IMG/VR virus record: IMGVR_UViG_3300037423_000584
DNA length: 64,000 nt
Origin: a virus
Direction: 5' to 3' (one strand)
Below the pieces are notes generated by a model. That model saw only the letters and a list, made by a program, of their open reading frames with translations. It ran no database searches and was not told where the DNA came from. Within the stretch, counting starts at the first letter, position 1. The number at the start of each line of letters is the position of its first letter. The position numbers were made by a program, and so were the translations under genes. Shown here piece by piece: positions 2,431 to 58,294 of this stretch.

Positions 2431-2516
2431 TTATGCCTTATAATGGATGGTATTTCGAAACTGAGTATTCTAATACGTTTGATACGACAATTAGTGGTTA
2501 TTGGGAGATTAAATCT

Positions 2517-3902
2517 ATGTCTATGTCTACAAGCAAGAAGTCCAATGGTGTTGTTTGCCGTTTCTGCCCTTCTAATACTGGTTGGTTACACTTGGGTTCT
2601 GCCCGTACTGCCCTTTATTCTTATGCTTATGCAAAGAAGATGGGCGGCAAGGTTATCCTTCGTATCGAGGATACCGATAAGGCTCGTTCTACTCATGAGT
2701 CTCTAGTTGACATTATGACCGGTCTTGATTGGCTTGGTCTTAAGTTTGACGATGGTCCTTCTCTTGAGGATGTTAAGAATAAGAACTATAAGAAGGATTA
2801 TTTCCAAAGTCAACGTACAGATATTTACAATAAGTATGTTGATAAGCTTCTTCAAGACGGAATGGCATACGAGCAAGACGGTGCCGTTATGTTTAAGATG
2901 AATAAGATAGATTATCAGGTAAATGATCTTATTCTTGGTCGTGTGAATTTCGATCGCGAAGAGTGTAAGGATTTCGCAATCCGTCGTGCCGATGGTGGTG
3001 TTCTGTTCCATCTTTGTGTTGTTATCGATGATGCTCTTTCTGGTGTTACGCATGTTATTCGTGCAAATGACCATTTGAGCAATACCCCTAAGCATATTGC
3101 ACTTTATAATGCTCTTAAATTTAAGGTTCCTCAATATGCTCATATGCCTCTTATTCTTGATGATAAGGGTGCAAAATTAAGCAAGCGTCGTGATGACCAG
3201 TTTGTTCTGATTAAGGATTATCGGGCAAATGGTTATCTTCCTGAGACTATTATTAATATTCTTGGGACTCTTGGTTGGTCTGCTCCTAATGGTGTAGATA
3301 AGTTTGATCTTGATTTCCTTTGCCAGAATTTCGATATTAAGCAATGTGGCAAGGCAAATGCTCGGTATGACCAGAAGAAGCTTCTTTCGTTTAATAGCCG
3401 AGATCTTGCTGCTATGAACTTCGATAAGTTCTGTGAGAAGGCTTATGAATATGGTCAAATATTCTATTCTGATTTTATTAACAAGTGTGGAACTAAGCAA
3501 CGCTTCAATGAAATCATGCTTGGGTATCATGGAAGAGTTAAGACCCTAAAGGATATATTTACCAATGCAAATGCTTTTGTCGATAATAATATTGAGTATG
3601 ATTCTGGTGCCGTCGAAAAGATCGTTACCACTGTTGAGGGAGCAATCGGAATCCTAGATGATATCAGAAATACTTTGGATAATCTGATGATCTGGAACAA
3701 AGATACGCTCAATAAGGTTGTAACTCAATTCTCTGTCGATAAGAAGTTGTCGATGAATAAAGTTGCCCAACCTATTCGTGTTGCTTTGTTTGGCAATACT
3801 GTTTCTCCTCCCATTGATACTACTCTTCTTATTCTTGGCAAGAAAGAGTCAATTAGACGTATCGATGCTTTTTTAGAGAAGTTTGCCTTGGTTAAGGCTT
3901 AA
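2517..3902 (+). CDS. gltX: glutamyl-tRNA synthetase (ORF open from 2433; probable start 2517)
   Basis: RFCPSNTGWLHLGSARTAL (HIGH), LRIEDTD, VIDD..GVTHVIR, KLSKR (KMSKS) and QPIRVALFG..SPPI; GGGAG lies about 10 nt before ATG 2517. Confidence 0.95.
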   Translation: MSMSTSKKSNGVVCRFCPSNTGWLHLGSARTALYSYAYAKKMGGKVILRIEDTDKARSTHESLVDIMTGLDWLGLKFDDGPSLEDVKNKNYKKDYFQSQRTDIYNKYVDKLLQDGMAYEQDGAVMFKMNKIDYQVNDLILGRVNFDREECKDFAIRRADGGVLFHLCVVIDDALSGVTHVIRANDHLSNTPKHIALYNALKFKVPQYAHMPLILDDKGAKLSKRRDDQFVLIKDYRANGYLPETIINILGTLGWSAPNGVDKFDLDFLCQNFDIKQCGKANARYDQKKLLSFNSRDLAAMNFDKFCEKAYEYGQIFYSDFINKCGTKQRFNEIMLGYHGRVKTLKDIFTNANAFVDNNIEYDSGAVEKIVTTVEGAIGILDDIRNTLDNLMIWNKDTLNKVVTQFSVDKKLSMNKVAQPIRVALFGNTVSPPIDTTLLILGKKESIRRIDAFLEKFALVKA

Positions 3903-3909
3903 TCTCTGT

Positions 3910-3970
3910 GCTTCCGGTAGCTTAATTGGTCAGAGCAAATGGGTGTGAGTTCGAATCTCACTCGGGAGCC
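3910..3970 (+). ncRNA. tRNA-like RNA lacking the anticodon arm
   Basis: Acceptor stem CTTCCGG/TCGGGAG, T8A9, D arm GCTT-AATTGGTCA-GAGC and T arm GTGAG-TTCGAAT-CTCAC; only 8 nt (AAATGGGT) separate the D and T arms. Confidence 0.75.
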
Positions 3971-3972
3971 TT

Positions 3973-4377
3973 ATGAAAATAATATGCACATTGTCTGATT
4001 GGAAAGAAACAACCGCTAAACGTGGTAAATATAAAGGAAAAATAGTTAGAACTAGAAAGGTTTTAGGACTAGATTCTTGGAATTGGGTTCTGGCAACTCA
4101 AACAAACTCAGAAAATGGTCCCATAAGTCAAGATAAGTTTTTCGGGAATATTAAAATGTTCCTTGAATTTTATCGTCCAAAGAGAGATTTGTTAGATTTT
4201 ATTATATACGAACTCGCAACTGGTTTAGATATTCAAATAGACACTTTGCCAGCAAGACCTTTGTCAAAAGATATGTCTGCCACTGGTAAATGGATAGATG
4301 ATAATTTTGATACTAGTCTTATGAAGAAAGATCCAACTAGGGTTTTCAAGAAAATCTTTGGTAATAAAAATGAATGA
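3973..4377 (+). CDS. hypothetical protein
   Basis: ORF in a coupled gene string. Confidence 0.6.
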   Translation: MKIICTLSDWKETTAKRGKYKGKIVRTRKVLGLDSWNWVLATQTNSENGPISQDKFFGNIKMFLEFYRPKRDLLDFIIYELATGLDIQIDTLPARPLSKDMSATGKWIDDNFDTSLMKKDPTRVFKKIFGNKNE

Positions 4378-4570
4378 AAATACAGAACTAATTAAAGAAG
4401 CTAGAAATAAAGCAACTGGTGCCGACATACATGATGTTTGTGGAGTTATAGGATTATATAGAGGATGGATTCATCTTAAAGATGAATTAAATGCAAAGAA
4501 ATGCGAAAAGACTCTACAATTATATATCAACGGTGTTAAACTAAAAGATGCGAAGAAGATGACAGAATGA
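4370..4570 (+). CDS. hypothetical protein
   Basis: ORF; ATG overlaps the end of the previous gene. Confidence 0.55.
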   Translation: MNENTELIKEARNKATGADIHDVCGVIGLYRGWIHLKDELNAKKCEKTLQLYINGVKLKDAKKMTE

Positions 4571-4992
4571 GTAAATTATTTTTACAATATACTGAATCAA
4601 GATCTGGCGGTGGAATTTCAGATGGACAAGAAGATGAAGATTGGCCAAGTCATGATCCTGAATATACTGAAATAGAACTTGGAAACTTACTTCTTACAGA
4701 AAGAATGACTCTTAATGGAGATTTTATTGAAGCAATTAATTTTGATCCAATAAAATATATTAATAAGCCATTATATATAATTCATGTAAGATATTCTACT
4801 GGAAATACATTTGGTAGATCAAATGGATGGTCAGCATTTCCAGGATGTTTTGCTTCTTTTGAAGAAGCTAGCGAATTAGAAAAACAAATTAGAAATAAAG
4901 AATATAGAGGATATTGTCCATGGGAAGGTTACTTTGAATATCTCGAAAGTGTAGATATTGTTGTTAAGCAACTATTAGACGGTAAAAAATAA
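4567..4992 (+). CDS. hypothetical phage protein, paralog of 12689..13129
   Basis: Shared L.Y.E N-terminus, VRYS..N.F....G, EAS....IR and PW motifs. Confidence 0.65.
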   Translation: MSKLFLQYTESRSGGGISDGQEDEDWPSHDPEYTEIELGNLLLTERMTLNGDFIEAINFDPIKYINKPLYIIHVRYSTGNTFGRSNGWSAFPGCFASFEEASELEKQIRNKEYRGYCPWEGYFEYLESVDIVVKQLLDGKK

Positions 4993-5162
4993 TGAAACCA
5001 TATGGATTAAAGCGATTTGAGTCTTATTTACTGCTAACAAATCTTGATGGATGCAAAGGTGATCAGAGCAGAAATATGGCCAAAGGTAGAAAAGAAGATA
5101 AGAAATTAATTCATAGACGCCAAAGAAGAACTACTAGGAAAGTAAATCCAGATTCTGAATAA
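4992..5162 (+). CDS. small basic hypothetical protein (not in the ORF track)
   Basis: TAATG overlap; MKPYGLKR...HRRQRR...DSE*. Confidence 0.5.
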   Translation: MKPYGLKRFESYLLLTNLDGCKGDQSRNMAKGRKEDKKLIHRRQRRTTRKVNPDSE

Positions 5163-5169
5163 GGAAATT

Positions 5170-6690
5170 ATGAAAGAAGCACTTACATTTGATGACGTTA
5201 CTATTGTTCCTAGATATACAGAAGTAGAATCAAGAGCAAATTGCGATACTTCTACTAGGCTTAGTAAAAATTATACTCTGTCTAATCCTATCATTTCTGC
5301 AAATATGGATACCGTGACAGAAGTTGACATGGCTTTTGAGCAATGGCGACTAGGTGGGATGGGATTCATTCATCGCTTTGGTCCAATAGAATGGCAAGCA
5401 AAACAAACAAGCGATCTATATTTCAAAATCAGAGATGAATTGCATAAACAAAATAAAAACTATACTGATGAAAATAATCTAAGAATAGGTGGTACAATTG
5501 GTGTTAGTGGCGATTATTTAGAAAGAGCACAAGAACTATATAACGAAGGTGCTACTGTATTTTTGATAGATATAGCAAATGGTCATAGTTTATTAATGAG
5601 AAATGCCATTGCTAATCTTAGATTAAAGTTTGGAGACGATGTAGATATTATTGCTGGCAATATTTGCACAGGTAAAGCAGCATTAGATCTTATGGATTGG
5701 GGTGCAGATGCAGTAAAAGTAGGAATTGGTGGTGGATGTTTTACACCAGAGATGCAAGTTAATACTTCTGCTGGCCTTAAGAATATATCTGATGTAGAAA
5801 TTGGTGATCAAGTATATACTCATACTGGTGTTCTAAAGTCAGTAATAGATAAGTTAACATTCGAGAAAGATGAAGATCTAATCGAAATCAATGGCATCCA
5901 ATGTACTCAAAATCACGAATTCTATGTGTTGCATCGAAGATATAGTGAAAAATTAGACGATCCATTGTTTGATCTAAATCAACACGCAGAATGGATTAGT
6001 GCTGGAAATCTTACAGTAGACTATCTTCTTCTCGAAAGACAAGATACTGAGGAAATTTCGTTTAAAGCAATCAAGATAGATTATATTAAACAATTTCATT
6101 ATATTGGCACTGTTTATGATCTAACTGTTCAAGATGACCATTCGTACAATATTAATAATATCATTGTTCATAATTCTGTGTGTGAAACACGTATTAGAAC
6201 AGGTATTGGAATTCCTCAGTTTACTGCAATTCAACAATGCGTTGAAGCTCTTAATACCAGAAAGAATCCAATTCCAATTATATCAGACGGTGGTATAAGA
6301 ACCCCAGCAGATGTTTGTAAAGCAATAGCCGCTGGTGCATCTTCTGTTATGATAGGATCACTTTTCGCTGCTACTGCCGAAACCCCTGGTTCTATTAAGA
6401 AAACTGGCAAATGGCCAAATGAACAATTGTTCAAAGAATATCGCGGTTCTGCATCCAGATCTTCTAAATTAGATAGAGGAGAAGCAGGTAAGAATGTAGA
6501 AGGTGCAGAAACGCTTATTTCTTATCGCGGAAAAGTAGAACGCATAGTTAATGATATTCTTGATGGTCTAAGATCTTCTATGAGTTATCTTGGTGCAAAG
6601 AATATCTTTGAAATGCAAGCAAATGCTGAATTTATGCGTATTACTGGTGCTGGTTTAATTGAAGCTCATCCTCATGCGTTAATAAAATGA
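5170..6690 (+). CDS. guaB: IMP dehydrogenase/GMP reductase family protein, no CBS domains, intein-containing
   Basis: [32 protein letters not shown]|SVCETR, SDGGI, MIGS, YRGSAS, VEG and GLRSSMSY; IMPDH versus GMPR cannot be settled by eye. Confidence 0.85.
5737..6174 (+). mobile_element. mini-intein (146 aa, no homing endonuclease) in guaB
   Basis: Starts CFTPEMQV, has block B TQNH, block F VYDLTV and ends IVHN with Ser at +1; its removal restores GIGGGSVC. Confidence 0.92.
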
Positions 6691-9539: not shown

Positions 9540-9944
9540 ATGAACGATAAAATTAAACAAGTTATAATGATTCGAAAAGATCTTAAGATGCGTCGAGGTA
9601 AAGAGATAGCCCAAGGTGCCCATGCTTCTATTGCTTTCTTAAAAAATAATATATGCGATCCACCACTGTGGTCCAATGAAATATACAACCATCATATTAT
9701 ATTAACAAAACAATGGTTAGAATGGTTTGAAAGCGGTCAAACCAAAATCTGCCTAATCTGCGATTCGGAAGAGCAATTATTAGAAATTGACAGAAAAGCA
9801 AAAGAGATCGGAATAGAATCGCACATTATTACTGATTCAGGTAAAACAGAATTCAATGGTATTCCAACTAAAACTTGTTTAGCACTTGGTCCTGATTATT
9901 CTAGTAAGATAGATCGAATAACTAAAGATTTGAAGTTATACTAA
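9540..9944 (+). CDS. pth2: peptidyl-tRNA hydrolase, Pth2 (archaeal/eukaryotic type)
   Basis: KQVIMIRKDLKMRRGKEIAQGAHA, GQTKI, DSGKTEF and TCLALGP. Confidence 0.92.
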   Translation: MNDKIKQVIMIRKDLKMRRGKEIAQGAHASIAFLKNNICDPPLWSNEIYNHHIILTKQWLEWFESGQTKICLICDSEEQLLEIDRKAKEIGIESHIITDSGKTEFNGIPTKTCLALGPDYSSKIDRITKDLKLY

Positions 9945-10165
9945 TGCTATTCAAAATATCTTCACATGCAGATCGATGGTATTCGTGGGTATATATCGAT
10001 ATTGGTGACAATCTACGCTTATTAAGATGGATAGGAATGGATGGCAATTTGCATTATGATCCACAGTATTTCTCATACAAAAGAAATGTCATTCAGGCCA
10101 TAAAGAAATATAATCCAGATAGTGTTATAAGATATTATTATAAATCTCTGAGGAAAGTAAAATGA
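9944..10165 (+). CDS. paralog array member 1 (FNSKR family)
   Basis: YFSYKRNVIQAIKKYNP. Confidence 0.6.
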   Translation: MLFKISSHADRWYSWVYIDIGDNLRLLRWIGMDGNLHYDPQYFSYKRNVIQAIKKYNPDSVIRYYYKSLRKVK

Positions 10166-10368
10166 GAATTCGTATTTTCGAACAACGTAGGCCATATAAT
10201 CAATCATCTTTGTTTTATATATATAACTATGATGGCATACCTTATCTTTCTAAATATAAGCGATGGAATGTGCGTTTGACAAATGCTTGTATGTTTAATA
10301 GCAGACGCCATGCAATTCAAGTTCTAAAGAAAAAACATCCTGAGCTTAAAAATAGAAAAATACCATGA
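10162..10368 (+). CDS. paralog array member 2
   Basis: MFNSRRHAIQVLKKKHP. Confidence 0.6.
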   Translation: MRIRIFEQRRPYNQSSLFYIYNYDGIPYLSKYKRWNVRLTNACMFNSRRHAIQVLKKKHPELKNRKIP

Positions 10369-10619
10369 AAAAGACAGAAATATTTGTCTATTATAGATAT
10401 TATACAAGAACAGATGGCACCGAACGTTGGTCTTGTTGGACATACAAAGGATCAGATTTGGGAGACTATATTTACTTAAATAAACAAGGTAAATTATCAA
10501 AAGGTCTTTTCTATTTTAATTCAAAAAGATTTGCAATAGCTACTATAAAGAAATATTTCCCAAATCATAAAATACTTTCTTCTGATGTATGGATAGGCAC
10601 TCATGAAAGATATAACTAA
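10365..10619 (+). CDS. paralog array member 3
   Basis: YFNSKRFAIATIKKYFP. Confidence 0.65.
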   Translation: MKKTEIFVYYRYYTRTDGTERWSCWTYKGSDLGDYIYLNKQGKLSKGLFYFNSKRFAIATIKKYFPNHKILSSDVWIGTHERYN

Positions 10620-10857
10620 GCTTTTTATAGTAACAAATAATAAAATAGATAATGAATTTTATGCTTGGCGATATACAAAAACAAATGGTGTGATTTCTTG
10701 GTCGTATATAAGAAAACATAATAATACCGGTTCTTGGTTATTTAATTCAAAAAGATTCATAATACAGACAATAAAAAAATTCTATCCAGATTATAGAATA
10801 ATAAGTGGACAACATTGGATGTCACCAAAAACAAGAAATGAATATGACTGGACATAA
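10603..10857 (+). CDS. paralog array member 4
   Basis: KDITKLF...LFNSKRFIIQTIKKFYP. Confidence 0.65.
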   Translation: MKDITKLFIVTNNKIDNEFYAWRYTKTNGVISWSYIRKHNNTGSWLFNSKRFIIQTIKKFYPDYRIISGQHWMSPKTRNEYDWT

Positions 10858-11113
10858 AGATATAACAAAAGTATTTATATATAGCCAAACAATAAATGGC
10901 AAATTTTATTATGCTTGGACTAATAGTAAAATTAATATACGTGGAATTGACAGATTGAAGTCTTCATATTTAAAGAAAAATGGAACTACTAATTTAGATG
11001 CAGACTTCTTTAACTCTAGGAGATATTTATTTCAAACACTTAAAAAGTATTATCCTAATCATGAAATAATTCCTTTTGATACTTTTATTCATATAACAGA
11101 TGAATATATATAA
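10844..11113 (+). CDS. paralog array member 5 (start uncertain; ORF open from 10805)
   Basis: KDITKVF...FFNSRRYLFQTLKKYYP. Confidence 0.65.
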   Translation: MTGHKDITKVFIYSQTINGKFYYAWTNSKINIRGIDRLKSSYLKKNGTTNLDADFFNSRRYLFQTLKKYYPNHEIIPFDTFIHITDEYI

Positions 11114-25952: not shown

Positions 25953-26200
25953 TGGGATATCATAAATCAGAAATTCCAAAAGGTTTTGTTGGACAATATT
26001 CTAAAATTGAAGAAGAGTTTCTTGAGTTTAAAGATGCGGTTATTCAAGGAAATAAAGTTATGGAGCTTGTTGAATTGAGTGATCTTTATCTAGCTATTCA
26101 ACAATATCTTGATAATTATCATCCAAGTATAGGAATGAATGATATTGCTATCATGGCTCAGGCAACAAAAGAAGCTTTTGAATCTGGCGAACGAAAATGA
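25952..26200 (+). CDS. small MazG-like protein
   Basis: SKIEEEFLE..DA....ELSDL. Confidence 0.55.
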   Translation: MGYHKSEIPKGFVGQYSKIEEEFLEFKDAVIQGNKVMELVELSDLYLAIQQYLDNYHPSIGMNDIAIMAQATKEAFESGERK

Positions 26201-26760
26201 TAAATTATAAACAAATAACACACGCAATCATTCATTATGAAAAACAAGGCTACGAATATATAGACGTACCTTGGGCAGTATCGAAAGAAGCAATAGATGT
26301 AACAATGCCACCGCAAGGTGGTTATTTCTTTTTAGGGAATATGATAGATAAATCCCTAGTTGGTTCGGCAGAACAAAGTTATATCCAGATGATGCTAGAT
26401 GGAACTATAAACGGAACTGGCAAGAAATATGTTACAGCTACTCCATGTTTTAGAGCAGAAAGAAATATAACAGAAATAACAAAACCTTACTTCTTTAAAG
26501 TTGAATTAATAAATTATAATCCTGGGAATCCTGATAGAGCCTTGTCTTTTATGGTAGAATGGGATGTATTAACATTTTATCAAAAATACTTTGGTTATAT
26601 AAGGATTCAAAAAGTAAAAACAGATGAAGGATTTGATATAATTGATACAAAATTAAATATTGAATTAGGATCGTACGGAATAAGAGAATACAAAGGACAT
26701 AAATGGTTATATGGAACAGGCTTAGCAGAACCAAGATTTTCGTATTGTTTAGCAAGATAA
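26197..26760 (+). CDS. stand-alone class II aminoacyl-tRNA-synthetase catalytic-core-like protein
   Basis: GYEYIDVP (motif 1-like), GSAEQ, TPCFRAE..F.KVE (motif 2), ELGS and GTGLAEPR (motif 3-like); only 187 aa, with no tRNA-binding domain. Confidence 0.7.
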   Translation: MINYKQITHAIIHYEKQGYEYIDVPWAVSKEAIDVTMPPQGGYFFLGNMIDKSLVGSAEQSYIQMMLDGTINGTGKKYVTATPCFRAERNITEITKPYFFKVELINYNPGNPDRALSFMVEWDVLTFYQKYFGYIRIQKVKTDEGFDIIDTKLNIELGSYGIREYKGHKWLYGTGLAEPRFSYCLAR

Positions 26761-57159: not shown

Positions 57160-58294
57160 GATTGCTTACATAAGTCCACATTTCGACGCTTCTGGTTATT
57201 CAGAAGCAGCTAGGCAAACAATATTGGCTCTCGATCAATCGGGAGCCGATGTTGTTACTAGACATATCAAGATGACTAATACGCACGGAGATGTTCCAAA
57301 TAGAATTAAAGAATTAGAGTCAAAAGATCTTAATAATGTCGATGTATTAATACAACATAACCTCCCAAGTGAATTTGTTTATAAGGGTGGAGTTCATAAT
57401 GTAGGAATGTTTGCTTATGAAACTTCATCATTTGTAAACTCAGGATGGGCTGATAATCTTGCATTGATGGATACAATCATTGTATTTGATCAATCTCAAT
57501 TAGAATCAATTGCTAATACGGACGAAAATCTTTTGGAAAAATCCTTCGTTGTACCACATCCATTAGATACGGATAAGTTCTATAAAGAATATGAAACGAT
57601 AGATTTCGGATTTCCTAAGTCTACACTAAAATTCTATACCATTTCAGAATTCAATAGACGCAAGAATTTCGGTGTATTACTAACTTCTTATCTAAATGCT
57701 TTTGCATCAGAAGATGATGTAGTTCTAATAGTTAAGGTTGGTAAAAATGATAGAGATCAAGTAAAATCAATGATTGAAGATATTAAGTCTAATCTTAATA
57801 AATTCAATGATGATAATAGATATCCCAAGGTTATTTTGATTGCCGATCACCTATCAGAAGATATGCTTTGTTCTTTGCATGTTACGGGCGATGTATTTGT
57901 ATCTGCTTCACATGGCGAAGCTTTTTGTATTCCCTTTGTCGAAGCTCTAGGTTTCGGTAAACCATGTTTAGTTCCATATCATACAGCATTTAAATCGTAT
58001 CAACCTGAATTCGATATAAATCTAATGGTTGGTTGTACGAGTGCTCCTGTTATTGGAGTATCTAATGCACCTCATGGATTATATACATCAGATGAATCTT
58101 GGTGGAATCCTCTAATAGAAGATATGACAGAGAAAATGCGTACTATCTACGATAATAAAGATAGTTATCTTAATGATAATGAACTCATAGAAGCCAGAAA
58201 GAAGTATGTCGTAGAGAATTTTTCCAGAAAAGTTATCGGAAAGCAGCTTTTAAATCTTATCGAATCAAGGATCAATAATGCAAGCAAGAAGTGA
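57152..58294 (+). CDS. GT4 glycosyltransferase
   Basis: SGYSEA, YET, RKN and SHGEAFCIPFVEA. Confidence 0.85.
   Translation: MPKIAYISPHFDASGYSEAARQTILALDQSGADVVTRHIKMTNTHGDVPNRIKELESKDLNNVDVLIQHNLPSEFVYKGGVHNVGMFAYETSSFVNSGWADNLALMDTIIVFDQSQLESIANTDENLLEKSFVVPHPLDTDKFYKEYETIDFGFPKSTLKFYTISEFNRRKNFGVLLTSYLNAFASEDDVVLIVKVGKNDRDQVKSMIEDIKSNLNKFNDDNRYPKVILIADHLSEDMLCSLHVTGDVFVSASHGEAFCIPFVEALGFGKPCLVPYHTAFKSYQPEFDINLMVGCTSAPVIGVSNAPHGLYTSDESWWNPLIEDMTEKMRTIYDNKDSYLNDNELIEARKKYVVENFSRKVIGKQLLNLIESRINNASKK

Follow-up and report, generated by a model that had tools for sequence, protein, structure and literature searches.

Between the gltX gene of an uncultured soil phage and the next open reading frame lies a 60-nt tRNA-like element (positions 3910-3969, plus strand) that is a genuine tRNA-derived gene lacking exactly its anticodon stem-loop. 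Positions refer to the window, by which we mean the whole 64-kb stretch of phage DNA that was analyzed. Our preferred reading, which we hold only tentatively, is by analogy: the element may act as a punctuation mark for RNase P and RNase Z, much like the t-elements of plant mitochondria.

A tRNA fold without an anticodon arm

In a search of a 181-nt stretch, the element matches the Rfam tRNA model (RF00005) at 38.5 bits (E 4e-7), above the gathering score of 29, and the alignment runs end to end, spanning model positions 1-71. The acceptor, D and T arms, U8, G18 and G19, and the UUCGAAU T loop are all present. What is absent is the anticodon stem-loop with its 7-nt loop and anticodon: the 17 model positions that it occupies are represented by 2 nt, both of them A residues.

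In the Rfam alignment, the 5′ strand of the acceptor stem (CUUCCGG, 3911-3917, plus strand, as are all parts of the element) is followed by U8 and A9 (3918-3919) and by a D arm (3920-3936) with a GCUU/GAGC stem and the loop AAUUGGUCA, which contains G18 and G19. An 8-nt linker, AAAUGGGU (3937-3944), then leads into the T arm (GUGAG-UUCGAAU-CUCAC, 3945-3961) and the 3′ strand of the acceptor stem (UCGGGAG, 3962-3968). The linker is made up of position 26, two extra A residues and a 5-nt variable region (44-48), positions 27-43 being absent. Residues 3911-3917 pair with 3962-3968 in a 7-bp acceptor stem with two wobble pairs (U3913-G3966 and G3917-U3962). In addition, G-1 (3910) can pair with the discriminator C73 (3969), which gives a histidine-type acceptor end. 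No CCA is encoded; the discriminator is followed by CUU and then by the ATG at 3973. The preliminary description of this DNA had listed the same parts, including the extra G3910:C3969 pair, the 8-nt linker and the missing CCA, and we find each of them where it had been placed.

All 17 base pairs of the element are Watson-Crick or G-U. By our reading of the sequence, each position of the standard tertiary contacts also carries its canonical base: U8/A14, A15/U48, G18, G19, U54/A58, U55 and C56, and further A9 with U12-A23, G45, G46 and A21. The GC content of the element is 52%, versus 32% for the window. We scanned the window for perfect acceptor stems of 7 bp combined with T arms of 5 bp whose loop fits TTCRANY; 3910-3969 was the sole matching site in the 64 kb, and the same scan gives ~0.05 sites per shuffled window. 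The folding energy of the element is unexceptional (z -1.4), so its significance rests on the tRNA model and not on folding energy. In a fold that takes in 171 nt of context, the acceptor and T helices are retained and form a domain of their own.

A check with ARAGORN and Infernal-type searches had been proposed at the outset; the Rfam model bears out the tRNA likeness, and ARAGORN reports no tRNA and no tmRNA in the window. Whole-window Rfam scans, both at the gathering threshold and at E 1, lose the element in their filters, and it becomes visible only in the short-stretch search. Given that it has no anticodon arm and receives no ARAGORN call, the element is not a functional decoding tRNA. 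A role as a decoy for anticodon nucleases finds no support, since the element offers these enzymes no anticodon loop.

Like the element, the tRNA-like domain of tmRNA has an acceptor stem and a T arm but lacks the anticodon arm. It is aminoacylated and by itself unable to decode; it carries the alanine identity pair G3-U70 and needs SmpB. However, tmRNA has no true D stem and includes pseudoknots and a tag reading frame, whereas the phage element is a free-standing cloverleaf of 60 nt from which one arm is missing. It does not belong with the tmRNAs: ARAGORN calls none here, the best model in an Rfam clan search is tRNA, and two protein genes flank the element directly.

We also considered an antisense display by the linker and rejected it, since the complement of the linker, ACCCATTT, is not enriched in the window: it has 0 occurrences on the plus strand, and matches are at chance level. 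Elsewhere in the window, two short GC-rich hairpins on the plus strand, GCUUCUGG...UCAGAAGC (57188-57207) and GCUCUCGA...UCGGGAGC (57227-57246), resemble the acceptor helix of the element in sequence. They match the model weakly (E 0.5-1.4) and are probably unrelated stem-loops.

The slot between gltX and the next gene

The upstream gene, gltX (2433-3902, plus strand, with its TAA stop codon at 3900-3902), encodes a full-length GluRS of 489 aa. Pfam matches cover both the catalytic domain (tRNA-synt_1c, 6e-71) and the anticodon-binding domain (Anticodon_2, 3e-27), and the HLGS and KLSKR signature motifs are present. A 7-nt spacer (UCUCUGU, 3903-3909, plus strand) separates the stop codon from the element. 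On the other side, an ATG 3 nt past the discriminator opens a 134-aa ORF (3973-4377, plus strand), an ORFan for which 5.8 billion protein clusters contained no homologue outside this phage. The element thus fills the whole 70-nt gap between gltX and this ORF, in a run of same-strand genes whose other junctions are overlaps or gaps of less than 10 nt. Neither within the element nor next to it is a promoter-like or terminator-like site listed. From the gene packing and the absence of promoter and terminator matches, we infer that the element would be part of one longer transcript.

Farther downstream, the window contains a gene of the IMP dehydrogenase/GMP reductase family (5170-6690, plus strand) whose product is 506 aa long, compared with 341-351 aa in relatives. 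Weak Intein_splicing and Hint matches fall at residues ~187-335 of this product, and the gene probably contains a mini-intein. Among relatives, the stretch from gltX to the IMP dehydrogenase-family gene is variable.

Reproducibility and distribution of the element

The sequence of the element is identical in contigs from two JGI samples (3300037312 and 3300037313), and in a Logan assembly of another run gltX and the next ORF are again 70 nt apart. Misassembly had been raised as an objection that might undo the observation; identity across independent assemblies disposes of it. Comparison of the window with those assemblies revealed 0 differences in 11.2 kb and 4.2 kb, which implies that the sampled population is clonal and therefore uninformative on constraint or selection.

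The nearest GluRS proteins in a collection of 5.8 billion clusters are 45-58% identical to that of our phage and are encoded on phage-like contigs. Ten relatives were examined, seven of which have readable sequence information after gltX. It had been proposed that related phages should be searched for the same armless element beside gltX, and it is absent from all seven (L003-L008 and the P0010 contig, the last judged from gene coordinates only). In five of these (L004, L005, L006, L007 and the P0010 contig) only 0-14 nt separate gltX from the next gene, so that a punctuation element is not needed there, which counts against our preferred reading. L003 has a 40-nt AT-rich gap with no tRNA-like sequence. 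The P0005 contig has a gap of 157 nt, known from coordinates only, and in L070 the gap reads as N.

The relative L008, whose GluRS is 49% identical, has a complete tRNA-Trp(CCA) after gltX, at 4364-4435 on the plus strand (called by ARAGORN; 43.9 bits with Rfam). This gene begins 7 nt past the gltX stop codon and ends 4 nt before the next ATG, and it shares its slot and layout with our element, but not its sequence. A complete tRNA at this place in a relative had been named as a finding that would point to a recent deletion; L008 does have one, but it is an unrelated tRNA-Trp. Its presence marks the position after gltX as a tRNA-gene site in this phage group. The start of the called ORF in L008 (4386) falls inside the tRNA-Trp and is probably wrong; an ATG at 4440 is in the same frame.

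In a blastn comparison with known phages, the region showed no homology, and the 67-nt element alone matched only the generic T arms of phage tRNAs. Pattern scans, exact and degenerate, with the whole element, with its D arm or with the acceptor stem gave no match in viral or genome contig collections, and a search for the locus based on GluRS returned nothing from viral and genome collections. A covariance model of the element (R1), run with filters off, detected no second copy in the window, in 21 kb of the same phage upstream of it or in three relatives; in total, 84 kb of sequence from the same phage was scanned for a second copy. When metagenomes were scanned with the D loop of the element, 59 ordinary full-length tRNAs were retrieved (Met, His, Ile, Trp, Lys and others), none of which was armless. 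Because this D loop is common to tRNAs of many isotypes, the isotype of the element cannot be read from its D arm. The armless form is known from one lineage only. Elements of this kind are missed by ARAGORN and by standard whole-genome Rfam scans, and routine annotation will systematically pass them over. A different reduction is seen in an unrelated metagenome contig, L030, which holds two tRNA-like genes (2150-2214 and 4539-4601, plus strand) with acceptor, anticodon and T arms and only a few nt in place of the D arm.

This distribution bears on a rival explanation, in which the element is a fresh relic: a phage tRNA gene, probably for tRNA-His, that lost its anticodon hairpin by slipped-strand deletion and has no selected function. 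We consider this possible, although doubtful. Restriction of the element to a single clonal population, with nothing like it in the viral, genome and metagenome collections, fits such an origin, as does its absence from relatives, among which L008, with its complete tRNA, points to an ordinary tRNA gene site. The rejection by ARAGORN is likewise in line with a relic, and the lineage-specific ORFan downstream fits recent turnover of the segment. Hairpins are favoured units of deletion, so the precise loss of one arm needs no selection. The preliminary description had taken this precision as a sign of selection; we find that argument weak for a hairpin, and for an element confined to one clonal population.

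Two observations speak against a relic. The 17 pairs and all the bases for tertiary contacts are intact in a tightly packed genome of 32% GC, and for so flawless a remainder to persist in an AT-rich, compact genome the time since the deletion would have to be very short. Moreover, in 349 kb of other metagenome loci we found 154 acceptor/T-arm matches, ~140 with normal tRNA spacing, and the armless state occurred in none of the 154. The other remodelled tRNA scaffolds of this phage, to which we now turn, also argue against a relic and for a deliberate reuse of tRNA frames.

A layout shared with other tRNA-like genes of the same phage

Two sequences, L009 and L010, represent ~20 kb upstream of the window, from a circularly permuted assembly of the same phage. 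In L010 there are four Glu-like RNAs whose D loops are expanded; their anticodon loops read CUCUCAG and their acceptor stems are of the GCCCC type. L010 also has a canonical tRNA-Asn (71.7 bits) and another tRNA-like gene of aberrant form, in which the discriminator is C. The tRNA and tRNA-like genes at 1034-1180, 2786-2931, 3169-3373, 4863-4996, 5757-5919 and 6645-6716 of L010 share a layout in which a stop codon is followed by 5-8 nt, a tRNA or tRNA-like gene without an encoded CCA, 3-7 nt and an ATG. The layout is present on both sides of the four Glu-like RNAs, of our element (7 nt on the 5′ side and 3 nt on the 3′ side) and of the L008 tRNA-Trp; its 3′ half is found also at the aberrant tRNA-like gene and at the tRNA-Asn. 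The 3-7 nt spacers have no room for a Shine-Dalgarno sequence, and at the other tRNA-like genes of the phage a G-rich 3′ acceptor strand occupies the Shine-Dalgarno position before the next ATG. This recurrence suggests a design that runs through the genome, based on tRNA punctuation or on structure-coupled translation.

The exception to the layout is at 8953-9019 of L010, where the next ATG is 31 nt downstream and has its own AAAGAGG ahead of it. This plus-strand sequence is a degenerate tRNA-like one (Rfam tRNA, 29.3 bits), with a perfect acceptor stem, a perfect T arm (GGAGG-UUCAAAU-CCUCC) and poorly formed D and anticodon arms, and part of it coincides with the 5′ end of an ORF called on the minus strand.

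Our element and the Glu(CUC)-like array of L010 have in common their genome, orientation, stop/RNA/ATG layout and lack of an encoded CCA. Unlike our element, the array members keep an anticodon arm with its CUCUCAG loop, and they have a GCCCC-type Glu acceptor stem, A73 and large D-loop insertions; in the element the acceptor stem is a different one, the discriminator is C73, the D arm is normal and the anticodon arm is missing. The single-sequence model R1 detected no copy of the element among the array members.

A family of small proteins with the motif FNS(K/R)R..I..(I/L)KK is found near tRNA-related genes of this phage. Five members are encoded at 9944-11113 of the window (plus strand), directly downstream of a gene for a PTH2-type peptidyl-tRNA hydrolase (9540-9944, plus strand), and in L010 members of the family follow tRNA or tRNA-like genes. 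A search for the family found only the five members of the window.

The layout also raises the possibility that the element is a translational coupler. The sequence GGGAG (3964-3968), within the 3′ acceptor strand, is at the Shine-Dalgarno position 4 nt upstream of the ATG at 3973, and the spacer before that ATG has no other Shine-Dalgarno sequence. The acceptor helix could lock this GGGAG and thereby make translation of the ORF at 3973 dependent on translation of gltX: ribosomes terminating at the gltX stop codon, only 7 nt before the helix, would start to open it. The similar placement of G-rich 3′ acceptor strands at the other tRNA-like genes of the phage is in keeping with this idea, although such strands are simply expected for acceptor stems of the tRNA-Glu type. 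From known ribosome geometry, however, a terminating ribosome would be expected to open only the outer 1-3 of the 8 pairs. Furthermore, a simple hairpin would suffice for coupling, which leaves the D arm, the T loop and the elbow nucleotides unexplained. We therefore regard coupling as highly improbable.

A histidine-type acceptor end and a mismatch with glutamate identity

The substrate of the adjacent GluRS, tRNA-Glu, is recognized through U34, U35, C36 and A37, the U11-A24 pair, the U13-G22:A46 triple and the lack of residue 47 (PMC9976931). The element has no anticodon, has C11-G24 in place of U11-A24, combines U13-G22 with G46 and does contain residue 47; only U13-G22 and U2-A71 agree with glutamate identity. 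Under the known rules, it is thus unlikely to be a substrate of the neighbouring GluRS. With the anticodon and other Glu identity elements missing, we rejected as leads both a GluRS substrate and an autoregulation of gltX by tRNA mimicry.

The acceptor end instead points to histidine. In bacteria, G-1:C73 is the chief identity element for histidine, and minihelices and microhelices bearing it are efficient substrates of HisRS (PMC9976931). Like bacterial tRNA-His, our element encodes G-1 (G3910) opposite C73 (C3969) as an eighth acceptor pair; unlike tRNA-His, it has neither a GUG anticodon nor an anticodon arm, and its 1:72 pair is C:G. Among 184 tRNAs from the loci that we examined, the combination of G-1 and C73 occurs in 7 of 12 tRNA-His and in 0 of 172 others, in agreement with the preliminary remark that the pair is of the histidine type. 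When 168 anticodon-trimmed tRNAs, a sample biased by the way in which it was collected, were ranked by similarity to the element, tRNA-His had the highest mean, and the best single matches were to Lys, Asn and Met.

The histidine-type end is the basis of another explanation, namely that the element is processed into a CCA-tailed, non-decoding RNA that is charged via G-1:C73 by the host HisRS or possibly by a phage class II synthetase-like core (26197-26760, plus strand). Such an RNA could donate its amino acid off the ribosome, or it could titrate an enzyme or a defence factor that recognizes the acceptor end or elbow of tRNAs. The restriction of G-1:C73 to tRNA-His among the 184 tRNAs and the charging of minihelices by HisRS are both consistent with this explanation. 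So is the remainder of the phage's repertoire, with a GluRS, the PTH2-type peptidyl-tRNA hydrolase, the 187-aa class II core and the non-canonical tRNA-like RNAs of L010. A non-ribosomal aminoacyl carrier had been among the first suggestions for this locus; what stands of that suggestion is a possible carrier of histidine, not of glutamate, whose identity rules the element does not follow.

The class II core is a protein of 187 aa with no Pfam match. Its structure model (pLDDT 96.7) has the catalytic core of a class II aaRS and no anticodon-binding domain, and comparison of the model with known structures gave Z scores of 20.1 for SerRS, 18.6 for HisZ and 16-17 for HisRS. The family comprises more than 1400 clusters of ~180-200 aa, and its profile matches SerRS in the PDB at 2e-6. 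PHROG 4806 labels it "histidyl tRNA synthetase", a label that we could neither confirm nor exclude; sequence and profile searches favour SerRS.

These properties weigh against a dedicated pairing of protein and RNA: the family is spread over more than 1400 clusters and the element is known from one phage, and the nearest relatives of the family in sequence are SerRS and not HisRS. In addition, the anticodon also contributes to histidine identity in vivo (PMC9976931). We take the C:G at 1:72 to be atypical for tRNA-His, no transferase gene lies beside the element, and the element is single-copy and not conserved. A charged, non-decoding acceptor or decoy is for these reasons unlikely. A more elaborate version, in which the phage deliberately makes a His-type non-decoding acceptor RNA as one of a wider set of re-engineered tRNA scaffolds, has it charged by HisRS or by the phage core for a non-ribosomal use, either as amino-acid donor or to sequester a host factor that recognizes tRNA acceptor ends, its excision at the same time punctuating the gltX operon; this we think distinctly unlikely.

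Comparison with t-elements and a proposed model for punctuation

A close parallel to the element is provided by the t-elements of plant mitochondria. These are degenerate tRNAs, and that of Arabidopsis nad6 has no anticodon arm (PMC5499578). Their borders coincide with mapped mRNA ends and act as RNase P and RNase Z cleavage signals, and the released t-elements carry non-encoded C/A tails (PMC5499578; PMC1920247). As in t-elements, the acceptor stem and a conserved T arm are kept in the phage element, within a tRNA-like fold that abuts protein-coding sequence in what would be a long transcript, and it shares with the nad6 t-element the loss of the anticodon arm. The t-elements differ in being organellar and in having experimentally mapped cleavage sites, whereas the phage element is known from sequence alone. 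Degeneration has also gone much less far in the phage element, which keeps a complete D arm and every elbow contact and has the histidine-type G-1:C73.

A second parallel is mascRNA, a tRNA-like fold inside the longer MALAT1 RNA. RNase P and RNase Z excise mascRNA, CCA is added to it, and it takes no part in decoding (PMC9976931; PMC8457004). In contrast to our element, mascRNA is eukaryotic and keeps a non-canonical anticodon arm, and its cleavage serves to form the 3′ end of a non-coding RNA.

We propose that the element, as part of a polycistronic plus-strand transcript, would fold as a tRNA-like domain. The host RNase P would cut on its 5′ side and RNase Z on its 3′ side, which would separate the gltX message from the downstream message. 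Cleavage would release a tRNA-like RNA of ~60 nt, to which CCA would then be added to yield a stable, non-decoding product, and the phage may benefit from one or more of these steps. RNase P grips tRNA at the elbow and gauges distance along the stack of T arm and acceptor stem; the elbow is likewise used by RNase Z and by the CCA-adding enzyme (PMC4919913). Because these enzymes read the acceptor/T stack and the elbow, which are intact here, cleavage could proceed without an anticodon arm.

An RNase P/Z processing signal had been one of the original suggestions, and it gains indirect support from the way in which the element fills the gap between gltX and the next ORF, from the recurring layout and from the precedent of the nad6 t-element. 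Besides the relatives with 0-14 nt after gltX, one consideration goes against punctuation: cleavage by RNase Z would strip the next ORF of its only Shine-Dalgarno-like sequence and leave it a 3-nt leader. A neutral relic, moreover, would be cleaved likewise, so that cleavage alone would be no proof of a selected function. The element is best filed as a phage-borne, t-element-like member of the tRNA-derived non-decoding elements, with a real chance that it is a mere recent relic.

Should the element be no more than a fresh relic, its interest would be minor: it would show a tRNA gene in the course of dying. If it is processed and selected, it would provide an example from a bacterial virus of tRNA punctuation by a non-decoding tRNA. 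Punctuation by decoding-free elements has so far been documented mainly for organelles. Such a role, if true, would be one more sign that tRNA frames are put to non-decoding uses in this phage lineage.
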